Part shown: positions 26,692 to 58,988 of the stretch, piece by piece
Numbering within the stretch: position 1 is the first letter of the stretch
Layout: each line of letters starts with the position of its first letter
Assembly: GCA_030324005.1 (NCBI GenBank)
Contig: JARDVH010000132.1
Span: 81,331,437-81,395,436 of the forward strand
Length of the DNA: 64,000 nucleotides
From: Negaprion brevirostris
Lineage: Eukaryota
Reading direction: 5' to 3'
Notes under the pieces: generated by a model
Seen by the model: the letters and a program-made list of their open reading frames with translations, nothing else
What the model was told of the DNA's origin: nothing
The model's database searches: none
Made by a program: the position numbers and the translations under genes

Positions 26692-26740
26692 CTCCCACTG
26701 CAAGTGAGGGGGTATGTTCCTAATCTGAAGTTTCCGACTC
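26692..26740 (-). CDS. IGF2BP3: IGF2BP3 coding exon 3 (start of RRM2)
   Basis: tctttctttctgcag|GAGTCGGAAA...CAGTGGGAG|gtaagt; 49 bp; encodes (R)SRKLQIRNIPPHLQWE, in frame after exon 2. Intron 2 is about 30.8 kb as assembled. Confidence 0.95.
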
Positions 26741-35509: not shown

Positions 35510-38300
35510 TTTTCAAACCTTCGTTTATTGGTTTTTACAGAAAGGTACATCATAAGATACAGGCAAAGAAAAAGTTCAAACAAACAACAGGTGAAGACAG
35601 AAACAGAAATAAACTGAATTATTCAACTCAGGAAACAACTGCCAAAATGACAACAGATTGCTAGATGGAATTAAATTTTTTAAACTGATCTGCGCAGTGT
35701 ATTTAATCTTTTCAATTTCAAGAAATATCTTCTTGACCCATTGCAAGTGGGGAGCCACTGACTTATGTGCAAACAATGAAGCAAAAGGCCAAGACATCTG
35801 ACTGGTGATGATTTACAGGCATCTCATCAGGGATTATCCCAGAAGTATGAATAATAGGGTTAATCTCAATGGATGTGCCACATATATGAAAATGTTGAAA
35901 ATCAAGGTTGGAGTGTCAAGTTTGTTAAAAAATGAAAGAAAGCAAGAATTGTCTGCAGCCTCTGAGGGATACATGGTAGAATAGAATGTTTTAAATTGAC
36001 TGTTTATATATGCGTGATCTCGGGCAGAAGTACCAGATTCTGAGCAAACTTCCATGGTCAGATCAAAGGCCAATGACTTGAAGTTGTTGGGAAAGTAGTT
36101 TGCTGGCTTTTTCCACCATGCTCACAATACTGTTGTCTTGATTTCAGAATAATTTGCTCAGCTTAGTTTGTGGATAAAAGATTATAAGGAAAGATTCGAT
36201 TTACAGAAAGAATTTCAGAAGTTCAGAAGTTGGAGCAGTAGTGTACGCCAAACTGGTCAATTTGGAGTACAAGGTCAACAAGTTCAGTTAGGCGATTTGA
36301 GTGCTGCGCGTTGACTCTTGCAGTGTATGAAATAATCTGACCACTATATAAATCTTAAATGCTTCCCAAATAATGGATACAGTTACATCAGGGGTCATAT
36401 TGACATCCAAGAACAAATCAAATGAGGAGATAAGATTAATAAATTCTTCAGAGTGAAGAACAGACTAAAATACTGAGGGGGGGTACACTTTCAGGAAACA
36501 TTAATCGATAGGAGGCATGGTCAGATATAACAATGCTGTAATAGTCACTGCAGTCTAGAGGTAAAGGTTTAACTATCCAAAATTAAAAACGTCTATTCTC
36601 GATTAAGAATGATGAACTGGTGAGAAAAAAATAAAACAATAATAATCTGTAACCTTCTAGAAAGGAGTTACCAAAAGCCGTCACAGAACAAAGCACGAGC
36701 CAGTTTTAGAACAGTCAAGAGAATGATTTAAAATGAAATTTAGGTCCCCGTTGAGAATCAGATGACAGTTGTGCAAAAGAGATAAAATTGCTGAATTACC
36801 AAGCATCATCCCAATTAAATGACTACCGGTTGACCAGAATTATTCATTTACTAAATAAACTACCAGATACAATCTGCTGTGTGAAGAGACAAATGGTATA
36901 TTAACGAATCAAAATTGTAGCCCTGTGATTTATAATGAAAGACTTGTCCCACGCATCCCTTCCTGAGTCTAAGAAGTGTTCTAAAAGTGTGCAAATGGGT
37001 TTCAAAAGCAATGTCAGCCTTAAGCTTTTGCATGAGAAAATGCCTTCCTGCATTTCACAGGGCAAATCAGCCTTTTTACATTTCAATTAACAACATTTGT
37101 AGAAACTTTGGACACATCGGATAAAATTTCTTTAGTGTCATCACACAAAAGGAAAATGAACTGACCAAACTGAGACAACCAAGTTGGAACAAATGACAAA
37201 CCAACAGCCTTCATTTAAAAAGAGCAACCACAGAAAGGAGAAAAGAACAAAAATAGAAAAAAAAAGTCCCCAACATCAGTCTCTCTCCCTACCCCCCACC
37301 AAAGGCTGCACCCAGTCCCTCTCTTCTAAAGAGGGATGTGAACATAGGGATAATTCAGAAGAACTTGTGTCCAAAACCCTACCAGAGTGAAATAAAACGC
37401 AAGAGTCATTTCCAGCTACAAATACCAAAGAGCCCAACTATACTTTGTGGCAATTTTAATTGTTATCACAAAAAAATCATAATCAAAGACCTTCAAACTT
37501 CGCAGTCACTATTAATATCGTACTACCATCAAGTGTTCAACATTAGTAATGCACAATGGGCAGCTGTAGAACAGAGAAAAGGTTTCTCAGCTGAAATCCA
37601 ATGGAATGTTGACATACATTGCAGCCCATTAAACTCAGACAGTCAACCAGTAACATGTTTCACATTATAGCCTTTTTCGGGATCAAGGAATATTTTCTGA
37701 ACATTGTTGCGATCAGCGACCTTTAACCTGGCAGGATAGAACAGGCCAAACTTTGCTCTTGGGCCTAGGCTTTGAGACTCCACAAAGGCAGCTCTTTTCT
37801 TGGCTACTGCTGCAGTGAAATCCAAAACAGTAACAATTCAGTTGCCTTTGCAGAGCAGGGTACCCGTCTCAACAGCTGCAGAATTCTTCCTTGAAGTGAT
37901 AGTAATGGAATTCAATAATGAAAGGCCATGGCCTCAGCATAGTTTTCAGCTTGGATTGCAGGCTGTGGCGAGAGCTGTCTAGCAGCAACATCTCAGGCAA
38001 GTCCAGCACATCCTTCAGTAGCTGTGCCACAAATTTAGTAGCGCAGAGGCCCTCAGTTCTCCGCACCCCAAAAATCCTCAAATTGAATTTCCTTGATCTT
38101 GCTTCAAGGTCTTTGGTCTAAGGTGTTAATTTGTTACTGCAGGTCTCAAGCTGCAGCACTCCGTCCAAATACTCATTCGGAGAGTACTCAAGACCAGAAA
38201 GGCACTCCCCATGTGCAACACAAACGGCATTGATCAAGTTGATGGCGGTCAGTAGCTTCTCTCGACATCCATCCCGTCATCGCTTCAGGATGTTATACAT
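35510..38300 (-). mobile_element. Degraded L1-clade LINE (ORF1 plus internally deleted ORF2)
   Basis: ORF1 (Transposase_22-type) motifs RSRKFNLRIFG..EG, FVAQLL, HSLQ...PWPFIIEFHYY..KE, DFTAAVAKKRAAF, FGLFYPARLKV (37640-38110); ORF2 remnants 35550-37050; minus-strand AATAAA and A-tract at ~35510-35530. Confidence 0.8.
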
Positions 38301-38870
38301 CTTAACCAAGTCACTGCTTACTCTTCAAAACTACAGCAGATACAAGTCTAGCCTGTCCAACCTTTCCTCAAAATAACTTGCCATTTCTAATATTGATCTT
38401 TACCAACTTTGTGATTCATGTTTAGGATACCAGATCTCTCTTCATTTAGATAATATGCTTTTATTCTTCATGCCAAAATGGTCAACTTCATATTTTCCCA
38501 CATTATACTCTATTTGCCAGAACCTTGCCCACTCACCTAACAAAATCCTTTTGTAGCCTTCGTGTAGCCTCTTCACAACTTACGTTCTTATCTTTGTCTC
38601 ATCAGCAAATTTGCAGCCGTCAGCCAAATCGTTTATACAAATTGTAAAAGGTTGAGGCCCTAGGATTGATCCCTGTGCCATGTCACTGGTCACATCCCTT
38701 CAACCAGAAAATGAACCATTTATGCCTGTTTCCTGTCAGCTAGCCCATCTTCTATTCATGCCGATGTTAACTGCTACATGATCTTTTATCTTCCACAATA
38801 AAATGTGTTGTGGCACCTCAAATGCCAGCATGTGACTTGGTTAAGCACGATTCCCCTTTTACAAAACCAT
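38300..38870 (-). mobile_element. CR1-like LINE fragment
   Basis: Reverse-strand QGSILGPQ.F, AKFADETK, WQI.YNVGK.EV.HFG. Confidence 0.75.
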
Positions 38871-39393
38871 CTTAGGCCACCCCAGCCCACCCATAATGTT
38901 TTAGAGTGGAGACGTTACCTGGCATTGCCACATTAGATGTGAGGGCAGATAGCCAAAGTTTAGTCAAAAACACAAGTTGAAGGAACGTCTTAAGACGAGA
39001 ACAATCAGAGNNNNNNNNNNACATAGGGCTTTGGATGCTGAGCTCTAAAGGATGCAATTTATATAAGAGTAGAACCCTACCATCATTTAATCAGAATTGA
39101 GCTGGGATTTATTCACAATGTGTATAAAATTGGTCCAAATGTCAGTGAGAGAGACTAGGTTGAAACAACTTGCACCGATACGTTGTTATATAATAATATT
39201 CTGCATTGCCCCCCACCGTTTCCCAGGAGCGTAATCTGACAATAGTAGACATTTAGATAAAGAAAATGGCATCCAGACCAAAAGCTTATTTAGGGTGTTA
39301 GGTTGTTTGAAGCTCCTTAAATAAAACAGAAGGGCAGAAATGGCAAGGCTTGCAGAGGAAATTTTAGAACTTAATGACTGCACTGATGAAGTG

Positions 39394-39493
39394 NNNNNNN
39401 NNNNNNNNNNNNNNNNNNNNNNNNNNNNNNNNNNNNNNNNNNNNNNNNNNNNNNNNNNNNNNNNNNNNNNNNNNNNNNNNNNNNNNNNNNNNN
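39394..39493. other. Assembly gap of 100 N, probably unsized (other gaps: 10703-10712, 12908-13007, 17064-17099, 18409-18508, 33045-33144, 39011-39020, 59595-59619)
   Basis: Runs of N in the sequence. Confidence 0.99.
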
Positions 39494-40611
39494 ACATAAA
39501 TTTAAAAAATTATTGATATTTTTTTAAAGTCTCCAACACTAGTTTCCTACTGAGGGAATGAAATTCTAGGTTGTAAATTTAATTTTTCACAGCAGAGCTT
39601 TAGTAATGAGTTTAAAACCTCACTCTGAATATACCTGCAGTAAATTTCAGTTGCTGCTGTAGGAGTAGTGGCCCTGTACAGGAAATTCTCACAGTTGCTA
39701 ATAGACTCAGATTGAAATAACTGCAGCATGACCAGGCAGCTTCTAGATTTCTATACTTAACTGGGGACATGTGCAGACTCCAGAAGTTGCTGTCAGAGTT
39801 TCTTCATTCTTGGAATGAGCGCTGACTGCTATTTGTCTTATGGTGGATTCCAATAATTAGTGTAGCTCAACTATCATGAACAAAATGAGGAGATTCCTTA
39901 CCTTTTTAACATGAGCCACATCAATAGTTTGAGCTGTTGCAATCACCTATTAAAACCATTCTTCCTGTTTTTGTATTCAGTGCCCCTAGTTACAAAAACA
40001 AGTGTCCCATATGCTTCTAAGTAGAATTGTTCTGCCATCTTCAAAGATTAGTGAATACACACCCCCAGATCCCCCCTTGCACAAAATTGTCCATTTAGAT
40101 TATACTGCGCACTCCCTGACATACACTATTTGCATAACCTTATTTGCTCGGTAGCTGCCTATCTCACCAGTGTATTTTTTTTGAAGTCTGTTACTGGCCT
40201 GCTTATTGCTGAGTGTATAGTCAGGTTTTGTATCATTTGGCAATTGCAGTTAAATAATTACTCATACTGACCTGCCCCATGGTGAGGGGTCATTCCCCTG
40301 CCCCTCTCCCAATCTGCACCATTAACTACTTTAAAGATTAAACAATTATAAACTCTTCAGACATGAAGAATGATTGGGTGATACACTGGGTTAAATGGCA
40401 TCTTTCAGCTCAAAATGTGGTTAAGGTTCAGCCATTAAATCTCATGTTTGCTCATAAGGGACCTGTATTTGGGCAGTCATAACACTGTCCCTGATGGGTG
40501 TAGCATTAACTGCCCCTAACTTAGCATCAAATACTCATTTCCAGAGACCGTGAGGTGGTTAATATGGAAATTGAAAAATATTGAGACTGGGTAGGGAGCT
40601 TAATTCTACTC

Positions 40612-40890
40612 AGTGGCATGGTGGCACAATAGTTAGCATTACTACCTCAGTGCCAGGAACCTGGGTTTAATTCCTGGCTTTGGTCACTGTGTGGAGCTTG
40701 CACATTCTCCCCTTTGGGTGATCAAGATTTCTTCCCACAGTCCAAAGATGTGTTAAATGGATTGGCCATGCTAAATTGACCCTTAGTATCAGGGGGATTA
40801 GCAGGGGTTATGGAGATGGTGCCTGGGTGGGATTGTGGTCAGTGCTGACTCAACGGTCTCCTTCTACACTGTAGGATTCTATGATTCTAC
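40612..40890 (+). mobile_element. HE1-type V-SINE
   Basis: gtggcatggtggcacaatagttagc...ttcttcccacagtccaaagatgtg...ctgtaggattctatgattcta. Confidence 0.85.
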
Positions 40891-41103
40891 TCTTAATTTG
40901 GACAGGATGAGGTTAGTTAATGGTATTTCAAAAACTCCCCCTTAGTTGGAATCAGTTTATAGAATTCTTAATTTGCTGATTTAATATTTAGATAAAGGTT
41001 GGTGATATAATTTGAACTGGTTACTTATTTCAAGTAAGTAACGCTCAGTAATTTTCTGCATTTTGAATTGAGTGGAATCTAACTGATTGTTTTTCCAATT
41101 CAG

Positions 41104-41423
41104 CTCTGACACAGCAGGGGACACCAGATTGGTTAGAATTCGTGGCCCTATGGTTACCTTGTGGAAATGGTTTCTTCAACTGCATTGTATACTTCTGGTT
41201 GAATAGGAGTTTCAGAAAAAAGTTTCAGGAAATGGGACAACGCCTCTGCTGGTCCAAGTGCCTTGTTGCCCAAGATGGTTCAACTTCACAAGTCCCTGAT
41301 GGAAAAGTTGTCATCAAGGTTTGGAAACACTATAGTGATACAGCAGCAAGAGCTTGTAGCATCTCTTTGTCCACTTGTGATCTGGTGTCCACCAGCAGTG
41401 AAACCATTTTATCCAATACATAG
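41104..41423 (+). CDS. Terminal coding exon of a class A (rhodopsin-like) orphan GPCR, nested antisense in IGF2BP3 intron 2
   Basis: Branch point CTAAC (41079-41083), pyrimidine tract and CAG acceptor (41101-41103), phase 1. Encodes (A)LTQQGTPDWLEFVALWLPCGNGFFNCIVYFWLNRSFRKKFQEMGQRLCWSKC...SETILSNT*: TM7 with NCxxY (NPxxY variant), helix 8 NxxFRxxF, post-helix cysteines and a Ser/Thr-rich tail. An in-frame TGA at 41064 shows it must be spliced. Confidence 0.8.
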
Positions 41424-43610
41424 ATTGCTAGGTATGGGGAGAAGAAACGTCAAATTGTAGAAAGATCCCTGCTGCTGTGAAACAAACACTATAGGAATGG
41501 CTCATTTGATGGTTGTGCTGTAGCAGGAAGTGTATTGGGTGAAGAAACCTGTCTTTGAAGCATTGTTTATGTGAATGTTCCCTTTAATATACTAGAAGCT
41601 AGAATTGAAGTGGAATTGGAAATTTATTTCAACTTGATCTTTTGCTCAGATGCAACTCAAGTGATAGATCTATGAAATGATTTGGTAGAATGTGTTTGTC
41701 TCAAGCAATGTTGGTTCATTTTCAGTGTTTGATCTTCTGAATTTATTAAAGTTAGCCTGTTATACTTTGCACCATCTTGGAGCTGTCAAATGCCAAAAAC
41801 CTGCTTATGATTTTTAGATTTGGTTGGTTCCTGATGATTTTTCACCCTGAAAAAATAATCTGGAATGTAGCAACTATCCTGGGGAGGGTTGGGGTGGGTT
41901 CTCAGTTGTGAGATTAGGTTGCAGATGAACTGGTGTGTTTCTAGTTGAGACATTAAATTGCACCAAATCAAAATGGCTGCCCCATGCTTTTATTTTCCAT
42001 AGCAAAATCTATTGTGAAATAACCATTGCAATTCTAAAATTATATTTTACTAACTGCAAATGAAGTGATTTAAAAAAAAAAGATAAATTTCTTCACCTTG
42101 CCCCTTGTCCATGACGTAAACATTTGATTTCGTGCACTGGGCAGAACTTGCATTTTGTTCAAATGTCCAGTGTTGAATTTAAAAAAACCCTCTTTAAACC
42201 AATTGCTAATTGTACAGAAAATATGGGCATTGGATCAACACTGGGAGCTTTATAGACCTTGCCTGCATTCAGTATATGGGTTTTAACAAATATCATTTAA
42301 TTTATAGCTTGTGTTTTTTAAAAAGATGATCTTGGAAGGCAATCCCCCAAAACATGGGTAAAAGTCCAATAATCCTGCCTAATAAAAGAAATAATTTATT
42401 CATGAATTGTAAACCAGTGGACCTTTTCACCTTGCTACTGTTTTCCTTTATTATATTTGACAGTGCTAGTATTCAAACTGTTCAGCTATCTAGTGAGTCT
42501 GACTGTGTCTAAGGAGCCTTGTGTCACTCAAAGAATAGATGTGCTTGGAGTTTCTCTGGTCAGAACCATTTGAGGTGTCACCATGAAATAGGTGATCATT
42601 TTGATGGAGCTCATATGTTTTGCTTTTTGACTTCACAATTTCAAAAGCTTGCAGTGTTTTCTTCCCTCACAGAAGCTCACTGAAATGAGACTGATATAGT
42701 TGCACTCTTCTTCTCCAACTAGCCATTCAGATTGGGTCCTGTTTCATCTTGGCTTTTCTTTGCTTTAGACCAGCCTGCATTAGCGAGTGGTAACTCTACA
42801 AAATCAATAGTCCCCATGACTGATATTAATACAGATTGTAACTAACTGAGCACAAACAATATTTGCAAGAAATTTTAATAGAAAAAAGAAACTTTTAAAA
42901 GAAATTTTAATGTATTATGTAGTGTTTGGAAATCAGTCTGCATGGTCACAAAGTGAATTTACCTTTTTAGAAAAGTGATTAAAATGTGACAATTAATTTC
43001 TTAACAATGACCCTTTTGTCTGACAAACTTTTGAATTCTTGGGATTATCAGTATTTTGCATTTGATTCAAGTGCCTTGTGTCAAATTTAAAATGTTAACT
43101 GTCAATAAGGTTGGCTTTTTGAGCAGATTCTTCAGTTTCCAATTAAAGGAACCAATCTAGCAAGTTAAAAATTAAGCTTTGAAATTGCATGTAATAATGT
43201 TGCCTGATTTGTACTAACCAAAATGTTGTAAGGAAATCAGCAAGTACAAGTTCCTGAGTAGTGAAGGAATACTATTGCCTCATACTGGAAAAGTTTGTAA
43301 GCAAGTCTTTTCAAATCTTGTTTTAAAATCTTTATTTTTGGAGGATTTGGGGGGGGGCAGCATTGCAGGGGAGGGCAATTTAGGGATTCTTAACTTTTGT
43401 GCAATGTGTCAACTTGTTGATGCTCACTTAGCCTTATGTCGTGTTGAATACTTTTAGTTTTGTCTGTACATTACACTCAGGATCTGTACATAAGAATTAA
43501 TAACCTAGAGTTGAATACGTTGTTTCTTTGGCTTGGATGATCTTGAAAATTTATCAGATTGTGACAATTAAACTGAATTAATATTTGAAAATAAAGCTAT
43601 TATGCCTTAA
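41424..43610 (+). other. Putative 3' UTR of the nested GPCR gene
   Basis: TE-free and T-rich on the plus strand after the stop codon; candidate poly(A) signals ATTAAA (~41745), AATAAA (42381-42386) and AATAAA (43590-43595). The true end is unknown. Confidence 0.45.
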
Positions 43611-43744
43611 GAGGATCCTTGTCATTCTCATACATTCAACACTTCTTCACAGCACAAGTGATTTGTTTTCTCCTACAGCTTCAGGGAAACATAATGCTGC
43701 AAATGGTCTCTGACTTTTGGTTCATATGGATTTAAATATTGAAA

Positions 43745-44013
43745 TCATAGAATCCCTACAGTGCAGAAGGAGGCCATTCAGCCCATTGAGCCTGCACCAA
43801 CAACAATTCCACCCAAGCCCTATCCCTGTAACCCCACATTTATCCTGCTGACACTGAGGGCAATTTAGCCTGGTCAATCTACCTAACCTTTACATCTTTA
43901 GACTCTGGGAAGAAACCAGAGCACCCAGAGGAAACCCACACAGACAAACCCCACAACCTGGGTCTCTGGCCACTGAGGCAGCAGTGCCTAACCACTGTGC
44001 CACCATGCCACCC
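43745..44013 (-). mobile_element. HE1-type V-SINE
   Basis: tcatagaatccctacagtgcagaaggaggcc...taaccactgtgccaccatgccaccc. Confidence 0.85.
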
Positions 44014-44630
44014 AATGGTTAATATTGGATGATGAACATGTACATAGGTTTGATTTGGTTAAGTTATCAGTTAATAAACTTTCTGTGACTATAGTGATTG
44101 TGATTTTCTCTATTTGTCATAAACTGGTCTAAGTTCAAAGTGGTAGTTGATTTCAATCTTCCATGTTTAAAGCCAAGCTGCCTAAACATGTACACAGTTT
44201 CAAAGCCAAAGGATTCTGATGAAGCAAAACCCAGACCAAACAACTGCAACTTTTTATGGCCATTAAACTGTGCTAAAAATGTTATTCTGTATACATGCAT
44301 TCCATCTGAAGAACAAATACAGTAGAAACTGAGTTTTATTAAAATAAATTTAATTGTAGACACAAGGTAAATTCTTGAACTCCTTCAGCATTGACTATAA
44401 CTTTTAGAAGCTTATTTATGCTGTCAGAAAATTGTTCCATGTTTAAAAATTGTAGCTTTTTTCCCATCATGAGATGCATAGTTGATTTAAATGTACATGT
44501 CACACTCCTTCCTATCTTTCCTTGTTCCTTCTGTGTTCCTTCTTTCACCACTGCCCTTCTCCACCCTACTCCCCATTTCTCTTCTCCCCAGATCCATTCT
44601 TTTCCCCTTAAACTGTACATACAATTATCA

Positions 44631-44915
44631 TGTGGAGATGCCAGTATTGGACTGGGGTAAACACAGTAAAAAGTGTCACAACACCAGGGTAAAGTCCAAC
44701 AGGTTTATTTGTTAGCACAAGCCACTAGTTTTCAGAGTGCTGCCCCTTCATCAGGTGAGTGGGTTCTCAATGGGCATAAACAGACAAACTCAATTTACAA
44801 AATGGTTGGACTGCGAGCTTTTACAGGTAAAGAAGTCTTAAAAAGGTACAGACAATGTGAGTGGAGAAGGAGTTAAGCACAAGTTAAAGATGTATATTGT
44901 CTCTAGCCAGGACAA
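44631..44915 (-). mobile_element. Penelope-like element terminal fragment carrying a minimal hammerhead ribozyme motif (44721-44760)
   Basis: Minus strand: ctcac-CTGATGA-aggggc-agc-actct-GAAA-ac-TA-gtgg, then aataaacctgttggact...ccccagtccaatactggcatctcca. Confidence 0.65.
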
Positions 44916-46924
44916 TTATTGTACAGAACACAAACCATTTAGCTCGAAGAGTCTAGTTCAGATGCGTACAATTCATGCAAACCTCCTCCTTCTCTAATTA
45001 TCTTTCCCACTAGCCCCTTTTCCTCTCTCCATCATGAATGCATCAGGCCTCTCCTTGTATCAATGCTATCTACTTCAATTATTTCATATGGCAACAAGTT
45101 TAATATACTTACTGCTCCAAAAATAAATTCCTCCTTAAATTCTTTATTTGATCTTTTTTCCCCATATTTTATTGGTGTGCTTTCAGTCTGGATTCATCTG
45201 GAAGTGGAAATTTTTTTTCAACTAGATGCCTTCATAAATTTGGAAGTGTCTTATCAGGTCTCCTCCAAATCTAGTCTTTGCCAGATAAGAGTCACTTTCT
45301 ACTCAGTTTTTCGAAAACTGAATTTCACAAATGGTGATAGCCAGTTAGACTACCATGAATGTACGAACTTTAAAAACTATCCACTTTACCCTGACTTATC
45401 AACTTTTAAACTTCACTTTCAAACTGCTGCGCTACCCCACTCCTTCCCACCAGCATGCCTGGGACATCAGGTCTTTGTAGCTCTCTCAATAAAAATATTT
45501 TCTCAATTCTTCTAATCACCTTAACCTTCTACCATCTGGTTACCAACATAATCAGAACAAGTAGTTCTGAGCAAATTACTGCTATCTAAACCCCAGGTTT
45601 TAAAACCAGATTGCCTCCTAAAACTTTGAGAAACAATGCTTTCTCCTTAATCACCAATATCATTTTGGTGAACCTCTGGTTTGCCTAAAAAGGCCTCAGC
45701 ATCCATCCTGAAGTAAATGGATCAGCCAAACATTTATTTCAATTGCTGGCTATTTTACATTCTCTATTTTCAAAGATCGCAAATCAGAGAGGCTAAATTA
45801 TGTAGTTTTTAGAAACAGGATCTTTCTAGTGCTTCATTTTGGTAATTAGGATGTGAAGTTGTAACCAATTTGATCAAGTTTTGCTCAGACACGTTCACCT
45901 GCTTCCATTTAAGTTTTGCTATTTGCCAAGATGCAGATCTACATTTGTTCAAATTCTCTGTACCGCAGGCTTCAGCAATACGTTTTTTTCTTGAATTTCA
46001 AAAGAAAGTTAAAAGTATTAATATTCAGTACAAGTGTTTTCAAATCTGAATTAAACAAATCAGATTACAATTGGACAATAAACTAAGATTTGATTTCAGG
46101 CTGGACTCAAAAGATTTCGATATAAATGGCATAAAACAGCATTCAAGACTTCTGATTACAAGATATTTAAATCAAATTTACAAGTTCATAAAACTCAGTC
46201 CATTCATTTAAAGTTTCAAATTTATACCAAACTCAAATAACAAATAAATGAAATTCAGAAAGTGCAGCATCTAAATTATTCACTGATTTGTTACAAGCCA
46301 TTTTACATTGCAACTTTTTCTTGTGAACTTACTAATCTGAATGAAAATCAAAGATCATACTCTGGTCTCGACTTGTCAAATTTTGCAAAAATTTACAATT
46401 TAATCATTTTAATCTGCAACATGCCAGGCAAGCCTATAAAAAGCGCAACACTTAAATACAAACCATCTTCAAGACAAACTGGAGGTAGATTTAGTTTTTG
46501 AAAAATCACATTTGTTCATGATCAATTTACTTTTAGATTTAAATCTGTCTTGAGATTTGACTGGAAATGCATCACAATTCAGAATTTTCTCCAAAATTTC
46601 TACAGGACAAGTTATTTACATTAAAAAGTACATATTGTCAAACGCAATTTTGAAAGTGCAACCACTGAAGAGGCAAACGATAGAAACCATTTTGGGATGG
46701 TGTATTCCATGTAGATGATCCCTGGAAATACAAGCCTTCTCCACAATAGCAAAATGTCTCAAGGGATTTCCTCAGAAAGATCTCTACTGTTTAGGGAAGT
46801 GACTAAAAACACACTTCTTGGTCCATTACTTCGGAGACACTTTTGAAAACAATGCAAAGGGATTTAAGTTTAGGGCAAAGAATCCTAGAGGTTCTGCCAC
46901 CTGTGCTGGTGAACAGAGGTCAGT

Positions 46925-48060
46925 TATAGCATAGAAACAGGAGCTGGCTATTCCACCCTTTGAGCCTTTTCCACTATTCAGATTAGACCATGGTTGATCT
47001 GAACTTCGTGTAATGGCTGCAGCACAGAATGCAGCGTGCTATGTGCATACCAGCTCTCTGCAATCACAACTCAGCTAGTCTAAACCCCACCTTTCAGGCA
47101 GTGTATTACAAATTCTAGCCCTTCCTTCTTTTGTCAATCATTTTAAATCTTTGTCCTTTGGTTCAGCTGCATGGCTTAAACCCATCATGATCCCCTCTCA
47201 AACTTTTCTGTTTTGAGAGTAGCTCCTAGCTTTTCAAATCTAGAGGTACCTGAAGTCTCTCATCCCTGGAACCACTCAAAATCCTTTTCAACACCCTTGT
47301 TTCTCTAGTCACAGAAGTATCAGAATTGGACACAATGTACTAGAGTGGAGGCCAGCCCAGTATTTTGTAAGGGATCATTGTACTATCCTTGTTTTTGTAG
47401 TCTTTGCCTCAATTTATAAAGCGTAGGATCTCCTTACCTTATTCACCACTCTCACATCTGTCCTGCCACTTTAAATTTGTGCACATATGCTCCAGGTATG
47501 TCCATTGCAGTATCTGTGAGGAATTGTGCCCTTTCTTATATTGCCTCTCCTTACAAAGTGCATCGCCTCACTTCTCTGCATTAAACTTAATCTATCGTGT
47601 CAGCCCATTATGTCCTTTTGAAGTCCATCATCATCATCATCTTCCTCTTCCAAATTATGAAGTGCTTCCTAATTTTGTTGCTCAATTTACCCAGCTCTTT
47701 GCCCTTATGCATTCATCTTCCAGAAGAAATAGTTTCTCTTATCTACTCTAATGAATCCTCACCATTTTAACTATTTCCATTAGGTCAGCCTCCAATCTAT
47801 TAAACAATAAAAATGAATTTTATGCAACACAGCTCATAACTGGAACACTGAACTTCAGTCTGATTAATCAACCCCATACCTCCCAAGATCAATATATTTT
47901 TCCTGAGATTCAGCACCCAAAACTGATCCCAATTTGAGTGAAATCTTCTCTGAACTGAAATAGCATCTACCCTTTGTATTTCATCCCTTGGGATAAGGCT
48001 AACATTTCATTAGACTCCTTAAATGATTTTCTTCTACTAGTGCACTAGCTCTAGCGATTT
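46925..48060 (-). mobile_element. Old CR1-like LINE fragments
   Basis: CR1 tail and reverse-strand VQF..L, FNAEK.EA.HF remnants. Confidence 0.55.
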
Positions 48061-49912
48061 GTGTTAATGGACACCAGGAACACAGGCTGGAGAGGGGTGT
48101 CAGGGCTGGACAGGTTGCAAAGCTATAAAGGAATTTGTAAATGATGATTGAGGGTATTGCTGAAGTGGTTGTGTTGCAAAGGTAGCATAGATTAATTTTC
48201 CACAACTACAGGCACTAAAGGATGCAAAAGACCAAGGATAAACATTTCATTTAATCAAATTCTGCTTAATACTATCCTTGTGAAGTACCCTGGCTTGTTT
48301 TACTATATTAAAAGACAAAAAAAAACGGTTGTCACAATCAGGATTCTGAGAGATAGAGCAGGGTAGCAAAAGCAAAGCCAGATGAGTTGTATTTTCAACT
48401 ATCCATCAGTCTCAAAGGCTTCAAGTGAACAATGCCCACTTAAACAAGTTGCTAAAGAGTCCTAGGCACTTGGTAAAATCTTACTCCATCAAGTAAGAAA
48501 TGGGATGGGAGGAACAAAAGAAATAAGGGAGACATTTAAAGAACAAAAACACACCCAAGGCTAAAGATGGGCCAGTTATTGAATGGTCAGTGTGTACACA
48601 ATTGTTCCTGCCAATTTTAATAGCAAATACAACAACTTGCATTTATATAGCCCATTTAACATCTCAAACCAATTCAAATTTGACAAAATGGAACCTAGAA
48701 ATTAAACCTTAATGCTACGTTTATATATTTTGTAGACAGTTCAGGAAAAAAATTGAACAAATGTATTATTAAATACTCTATAGCTAGTTTAAATACAACT
48801 TAATATCCTTCTATACAAAATCTTAAATTATAAATGAATTTCAGTCTTCATAAAGAGGTCATGGGTGCTGAAATTTTCTTTCTGGAAAGAACTTTACAAC
48901 CAGTACACAATTTTTAACCAGGTCCCAAGAAACTTAAATTTAAAAAGGAAGACTTCAAATTCAGCCATTTTAATGCAGAAATCATTCTGAACCAGTTTGA
49001 ATTTGAGAAATGTAGTTATTCTTGGGATGCCTTACCAGCATTTAATATCAAGATAACAAATTGTTAAAATGAATTGAATTTTAGAGCAAACATTTAAATA
49101 CAAGAAATCAATAAACCCATCCAACTTTTAAGGAAGTCTGAGGTACATCAGTAACTTGGGTTGATTTACCTAGCCTTAGCCACAGCAGCAGTCAAGTCTT
49201 ACAATTGATCTTGGTGCCCCTAGTTTACAGGAGAAAGCACAGCCAGTAAACTGGCTCCCAAACATGATCAGGTGACCCTTGCTGAAAGCATACGATAGGG
49301 ACAAGATCAAGTTCAGCTGAGATTTCCCCATTTGATTAGCCAGTCAGCACTTGCATCATGTTGAGGTACTCAAAACTGCTTAGTGCAATCACACCCTGGC
49401 ATTAAAAACAAGATCTTGCATTATATAGTATATTTAAAACATAGTACAAGGTGTATCAAAAAGAAAACTCATAAGGCACACAATAGGATAGATAATCCAA
49501 AGTTTGGGCAAAGAGGCAGGATTTATAGAACCTCTGATAAGAAGGAAGAGGAACAATGGTTTGGGGAGGGAATAAGCAAATGTTTTCAGTAGAGAAGGTG
49601 AAACTGAGTACAAAAACAAGCTTGATATCAAGTTAAATTTATTTTAATACTAACATTAATTTTTCTACATTAGTCTGTTTAATCAGGAATATATTAATCA
49701 TATTAGATGACCTTTCAATCTTTTGGAATAAAAGATCAAACTTGTGACTAGCAATTTGAAGTGCAACAGCAAATCCAATTTTATCTTGGGTTTTAGAAGT
49801 TACAACATGTAGATTAAAATTGCACAGAACTTCAAATTCAGGAAAGCAGCACATCAACTTTTGCCACTTGTATTTTAATATTTCAGCAGCTGTTATGATT
49901 GAACTATATAAG

Positions 49913-57537: not shown

Positions 57538-57598
57538 CTTTGTCGTTTAGGGACGGAATGTTCCACTTCGATAGATTTCCCGTGCAGCTCCACTTTAC
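57538..57598 (-). CDS. IGF2BP3: IGF2BP3 coding exon 2
   Basis: cctcag|GTAAAGTGGAG...CGACAAAG|gtaaaa; 61 bp; encodes (G)KVELHGKSIEVEHSVPKRQ(R), in frame with exon 1. Missed by the ORF track. Confidence 0.95.

Positions 57599-58670: not shown

Positions 58671-58988
<318 letters not shown>

Follow-up and report, generated by a model that had tools for sequence, protein, structure and literature searches.

An orphan receptor family without bird or mammal members is listed in the supplement of Rinne et al. 2019 (PMC6504862), in which the row labelled 'GPR188' covers gar, fishes, coelacanth, amphibian and reptile, and in which a GPR21/52 subtype is proposed for the family. In the main text of PMC6504862, the set with matching taxa is GPR211, placed under GPR21/52, and GPR188 is a different set, so that this name denotes different gene sets in the two parts of the source. 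Main-text GPR211 likely corresponds to the family of zebrafish zgc:162592. The receptor family is already catalogued; a literature search of main texts yielded no study of zgc:162592.

The locus analyzed here is a window of 64,000 nucleotides from the assembly of the shark Negaprion brevirostris (GCA_030324005.1), in which an exon of such a receptor is placed in intron 2 of IGF2BP3. The window carries, intact, the final exon of an orphan class A receptor. Exon 1 lies on another chromosome-scale scaffold, C193, beside a gap of 8.5 kb, and it is very probable that the placement in IGF2BP3 is an assembly error.

The receptor exon and its first-exon partner

The following features of the receptor exon were located in the window:

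41079..41103, plus strand: splice acceptor (CTAAC, pyrimidine tract, CAG), phase 1, matching the first-exon donor ...TATCAG G/GTGAGT on scaffold C193
41104..41423, plus strand: last coding exon of an orphan GPCR of the zgc:162592 family (ECL3, TM7 with NCxxY, helix 8, C-tail, TAG), 92% to residues 282-387 of the Mustelus orthologue P0001, single copy

The segment 41104-41423 (+) codes for the C-terminal part of a class A GPCR, with TM7, helix 8 and the tail. A branch point CTAAC (41079-41083) and a pyrimidine tract precede the CAG at 41101-41103, and the exon begins with CT in phase 1 and runs through 105 open codons to the TAG at 41421-41423. The letters from CTAAC to TAG thus bear out the complete acceptor and uninterrupted exon described in the earlier note. 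The encoded peptide, LTQQGTPDWLEFVALWLPCGNGFFNCIVYFWLNRSFRKKF..., is followed by C-x4-C and a Ser/Thr-rich tail.

The best match of the exon peptide was a RefSeq model of Mustelus asterias, with 91% identity across the entire exon (E=7e-60), and 13 full-length 7tm_1 proteins were matched at E<=1e-3 among 33 candidates. The PDB matches at E<=0.01 were class A GPCRs without exception. Together, the Mustelus and PDB matches uphold the assignment to a class A GPCR C-terminus. Judged by these matches, the exon is not a chance sequence, and it occurred only once in the assembly (2.69 Gb).

With Pfam, the window exon alone gave no match to 7tm_1, because the piece is too short. The check by protein similarity that had been proposed was therefore positive for protein matches and negative for 7tm_1 on this exon, while the upstream exon on C193 reached 102.8 bits (E=3e-29) and full-length P0001 116.2 bits, at a cut-off of 30.5.

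The surroundings of the exon (40860-43767) were collinear in relatives, as seen in public contigs. The exon lies between two oppositely oriented SINE copies, at 40610-40892 and 43734-44014, and the public contigs break at both.

When eight full-length homologues were searched by tblastn, only their last ~106 residues (282-387) were found in the window. In the whole genome, homologue residues 18-282 matched C193:24814919-24815713 at 95%. C193 is a scaffold of 131.8 Mb, and C132, which carries the window, is one of 143.1 Mb. The first coding exon (TM1-TM6) starts on C193 with an ATG at 24814752 and ends with ...TATCAG G/GTGAGT, a phase-1 donor that fits the cag/CT of the window; joining G and CT yields the Ala codon present in the homologues. 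The donor is followed by 155 nt of intron and then by a gap of 8,504 N. It is supported that both exons belong to one intact class A orphan GPCR gene with two coding exons.

Two further observations were made around exon 1. A 100-N gap inside the first coding exon, at L002:1403-1502 (C193:24814821-24814920), is false, with sides that overlap by 16 nt, so that the receptor model is broken twice in the assembly. A cytosolic sulfotransferase gene on the minus strand lies 4.4 kb to the right of the 8,504-N gap (exons L015:8732-8995 and L016:542-892; Pfam Sulfotransfer_1).

The true locus would be an ordinary gene with two coding exons on the C193 chromosome, beside the sulfotransferase gene. Exon 1, which covers the ATG and everything through TM6, would be cis-spliced in phase 1 to the exon for TM7, helix 8 and tail, giving a rhodopsin-type receptor of ~387 aa. 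Split as it is across two scaffolds, the gene would be called broken by gene finders.

Position relative to IGF2BP3 in this and other species

The coding exons of IGF2BP3 in the window run against the receptor exon, with the later exons to the left of the window:

58676..58850, minus strand: IGF2BP3 coding exon 1
57538..57598, minus strand: IGF2BP3 exon 2
26692..26740, minus strand: IGF2BP3 exon 3

The earlier note had described the exon as lying on the strand opposite IGF2BP3, between its exons 2 and 3. This holds for the assembly but probably not for the chromosome, the segment being likely mis-scaffolded. The further claim of a receptor gene nested antisense in IGF2BP3 was not supported, since the ATG and the TM1-TM6 exon lie on another chromosome-scale scaffold and the whole transcription unit is consequently not contained in the host intron. 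Had the receptor been such a nested gene, this would matter for the regulation of IGF2BP3. Head-on transcription of the receptor against IGF2BP3 is likewise without grounds, as the rest of the gene is on C193. A literature search returned no publication on a GPCR nested in IGF2BP3.

Conservation of the position within igf2bp3 was checked by comparing the longest recorded contig for each gene, an indirect measure that assumes one assembly version per species. By this measure, the receptor and IGF2BP3 were on contigs of different size in 15/15 decidable cartilaginous fishes and in 17/17 bony vertebrates with rows for both genes. The conserved position that had been proposed was accordingly found in none of 32 decidable species. 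Contig sizes in the cartilaginous fishes were as follows (receptor/IGF2BP3, Mb):

Mustelus: 152.9/168.2
S. canicula: 198.8/233.9
S. torazame: 266.3/328.1
Stegostoma: 68.0/163.1
Hemiscyllium: 85.0/142.8
C. plagiosum: 73.2/124.1
Heterodontus: 99.7/227.1
Heptranchias: 66.5/172.4
Amblyraja: 51.0/151.6
Leucoraja: 43.8/139.7
Rhinoraja: 82.2/116.5
Mobula hypostoma: 80.6/70.9
Callorhinchus: 18.1/125.6
Hypanus: receptor 85.9, IGF2BP3 at most 73.8
Hemitrygon: receptor 91.7, IGF2BP3 at most 73.8

C193 and C132 (131.8/143.1 Mb) stand at about the Mustelus ratio. Carcharodon and Cetorhinus were dropped from the count (one shared IGF2BP3 protein, two contigs), as were Rhincodon, Chiloscyllium punctatum and Mobula birostris, which had no comparable row.

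These comparisons also bear on the reverse possibility, that the contig with exon 1 is misplaced on C193 and the whole gene moved recently into IGF2BP3 intron 2 in the shark lineage. Upstream of the window exon, the 100-N gap at 39394-39493, whose size is unknown, would leave room for this. However, in no decidable species, Mustelus included, does the receptor share a contig with IGF2BP3, and the 16-nt overlap across the false gap ties exon 1 to the upstream part of C193, while the sized gap that follows exon 1 fits the block around the window exon. Such a misplacement of exon 1 is considered very improbable.

A third reading takes both placements as true and derives the receptor mRNA from trans-splicing between two chromosomes. 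Both halves are indeed intact, matched in phase and each single-copy. Against this, the sized gap on C193 lies exactly where the missing exon would be expected, the gene models of all relatives are each on one contig, and to our knowledge vertebrate genes have no established route of expression by inter-chromosomal trans-splicing; this reading was given next to no weight. A last exon truly moved to IGF2BP3 intron 2 and trans-spliced to exon 1, or alternatively a whole gene nested antisense in this species only, is taken together also highly improbable. The assembly does place the exon inside IGF2BP3, and the nesting is with high probability an artefact of that assembly. The mis-scaffolding that had been named beforehand as fatal to the nested-gene claim thus likely occurred, with exon 1 on C193 beside the 8,504-N gap.

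The block carrying the exon in intron 2

Under the preferred explanation, an assembly error, the receptor exon would have been carried into intron 2 as part of a larger block:

39394..39493: 100-N scaffold gap, likely the left false join, unbridged among the contigs listed from 4 runs
39494..48000: likely misplaced block that would fill the C193 gap, as T-A skew and gap size suggest; it starts at the N gap and would end at an estimated 46,000-48,000

With repeats masked, the T-A skew was +0.08 to +0.10 over 39494-46000, neutral at 46-48 kb and negative beyond, while the remaining intron 2 gave -0.07 to -0.12. Across the body of the IGF2BP3 gene, A exceeded T on the plus strand, as is expected of a gene transcribed from the minus strand. 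The best T-rich block of intron 2 had an LLR of 33, a value reached by 0/200 block shuffles, and six control stretches gave 12-20. Its right end fell at ~47.8-48.0 kb, and masking of repeats gave 46-48 kb. This end is made less sharp by old LINE remnants near 47 kb. Measured from the N gap, its length comes to 6.5-8.5 kb, which fits the 8,504-N gap of C193, and the flank to the right of that gap has the same sign of skew as the block (+0.04). The block is depleted in CpG, with 0.10 compared with a window mean of 0.22, which is a weak hint only.

The profile of the left end had two near-equal peaks, at 37,750 and 39,500. Public contigs from 4 of 22 listed sequencing runs were compared with 36001-43900, and contigs of runs X1 and X11 cross 37.6-38.0 kb, which excludes 37,750 as the left end of the block. 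No RNA run was among those listed, and this says nothing about expression. A decayed reading frame at 37869-38117 (-) presumably resembles a piece of LINE-1 ORF1.

At the N gap itself (39394-39493), no bridging contig was present among the matches listed from the 4 runs. Record 17 of run X11 fits up to 39393 and continues with 732 letters that match nothing in 39494-43900 or in the rest of 36001-43900, and on the right side, contigs of X10 and X11 extend ~75 letters to the left of 39504 and then stop. The 100-N gap, being of unknown size, may hide more than 732 letters, and its unbridged state is thus not proof of a false join.

The right side is less straightforward, as 39494-59594 contains no N and joins the receptor exon to IGF2BP3 exons 1-2, so that a second false join must fall within gapless sequence. 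It likely sits in a repeat. Between the block ends or the window and the flanks of the C193 gap, no overlap was found. DNA searches of the shark's own genome with 39021-49500 and 45000-49000 returned repeat copies only, with no duplicate and no alternative neighbour.

The same N-free sequence would favor a lineage-specific move or duplication that brought the last exon to IGF2BP3 intron 2, with the working copy unassembled in the C193 gap. Near-identical copies may collapse into one in short-read assemblies, and such a collapse could conceal a second copy here. Contigs of X1, which is near-identical DNA (0-1 differing letters per contig), covered the block at a depth of 3-7 and its surroundings at 5-7; this equality speaks against a collapsed duplicate. 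For X9, depth rose from 3-4 on the left side of the gap to 7-8 within the block, a difference that heterozygosity can explain and that was not counted as evidence. The single copy of the exon in the assembly also argues against a duplication, as do the collinearity of the block in three relatives, at ~96-97% likeness, and the intact frame. A move or duplication of this kind was judged improbable.

In the preferred explanation, the block from 39494 to ~46-48 kb would belong in the 8,504-N gap of C193, with one false join at the left-hand N gap and another within a repeat on the right. For users of the assembly, this likely means a foreign block of 6.5-8.5 kb in IGF2BP3 intron 2.

Family, motifs and comparison with known receptors

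A search with the Mustelus protein, in which 8,000 candidates were scored, gave 119 proteins at E<=1e-20, all of them at 1e-60 or better; 104 carried a species name and 15 were unnamed. The named matches came from cartilaginous fishes, bichir, gar, bowfin, sturgeons, teleosts, coelacanth, lungfish, amphibians, squamates, turtles and crocodilians, and none of the 104 was from a bird or mammal. The earlier proposal of an intact, multi-exon orphan receptor is borne out by the two coding exons, and so is its absence from mammals among the named matches. The family is not restricted to cartilaginous fishes, being also present in bony fishes, amphibians and reptiles. The evidence for loss in birds and mammals comes from the 8,000-candidate search and from the table in PMC6504862. 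Since the receptor is present in crocodilians and turtles, its absence from birds and mammals would mean two separate losses.

RefSeq names for family members vary at random (histamine H2, melatonin 1A, adenosine A2b, D4, GPR21), and the UniRef name Zgc:162592 is attached to P0115, P0164, P0192, P0205 and P0211. The tree had 16 rows (nine family members, the shark exon 1 and six paralogues) and was rooted at its midpoint, without a true outgroup; two more candidate paralogue loci yielded no usable ORF and are not in it. In it, exon 1 of the shark grouped with Mustelus (96/99) inside a family clade supported at 100/99. The receptor falls within the clade named Zgc:162592 and thereby in the zgc:162592 / GPR188-GPR211 family; by sequence, it is an orthologue of zebrafish zgc:162592. 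In P0003, RefSeq isoform X1 of Scyliorhinus canicula, a 50-residue insert lies exactly at the exon junction (ECL3); it may be an alternative exon or an error of gene prediction.

Position numbers were checked against an alignment with beta1-AR. Class A motifs are kept in nearly all of the 135 aligned rows: N1.50, D2.50, C3.25/C45.50, E/DRY, W4.50, P5.50, CWxP, N7.49-Y7.53 and helix 8, with Cys at position 7.50 (NCxxY in TM7). The model of P0001 has a pLDDT of 73, with seven helices and helix 8, and all matches listed by Foldseek were class A GPCRs, with no subfamily singled out. Class A membership is thus supported by 7tm_1 scores above the cut-off, by the motifs and by the seven-helix model. 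From ERY, CWxP and helix 8, the receptor would signal via G proteins, with a small ligand.

At position 3.32 (P0001 residue 127; L002:1504-2292), which we take to be the amine anchor of aminergic receptors, Asp was present in 22/22 shark and ray rows. The other 113/113 rows, Callorhinchus (chimaera) included, have Asn, Ser or Thr. The Asp rows are related and hence count as one change rather than 22; the alignment makes it likely that elasmobranchs gained the amine-anchor residue once. It offers a testable hint that the ligand changed in sharks and rays and may there be an amine.

The histamine H2 receptor and other aminergic receptors, from which the automatic RefSeq names derive, gave the best PDB profile match (E=4e-36) and share with this receptor the elasmobranch Asp3.32, W7.40, ERY and CWxP. 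They differ from it in that its position 7.43 is Cys and not Tyr, its 7.50 is Cys and not Pro, and its identity is only ~30% to L004, which we take to be the H2-like gene of this shark. An HRH2 orthologue or aminergic receptor was considered and rejected: Asp3.32 is confined to the 22 elasmobranch rows, 7.43 is Cys/Ser/Thr/Ile, and the clade is separate from the H2-like gene.

GPR21/GPR52 are alike in having NCxxY and not NPxxY in TM7, and GPR21 was the best PDB match of the exon. They are unlike it in their ~27% identity and in being separate genes in the shark genome, where the intronless L005 and L008 are presumably GPR21-like and GPR52-like genes (labelled by inspection). In the 16-row tree, which has no true outgroup, the family formed one long-branched clade that was not joined to GPR21/52, the branch at the midpoint root being near zero, and no sister group was supported.

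The closest described system remains the zgc:162592 family itself, for which the table in PMC6504862 has no cartilaginous-fish column. Outside elasmobranchs its members have Asn, Ser or Thr at 3.32, whereas sharks and rays have Asp, and in the present shark assembly the two exons lie on different scaffolds. The receptor is a little-studied, conserved orphan of non-avian, non-mammalian jawed vertebrates that is misnamed in databases.
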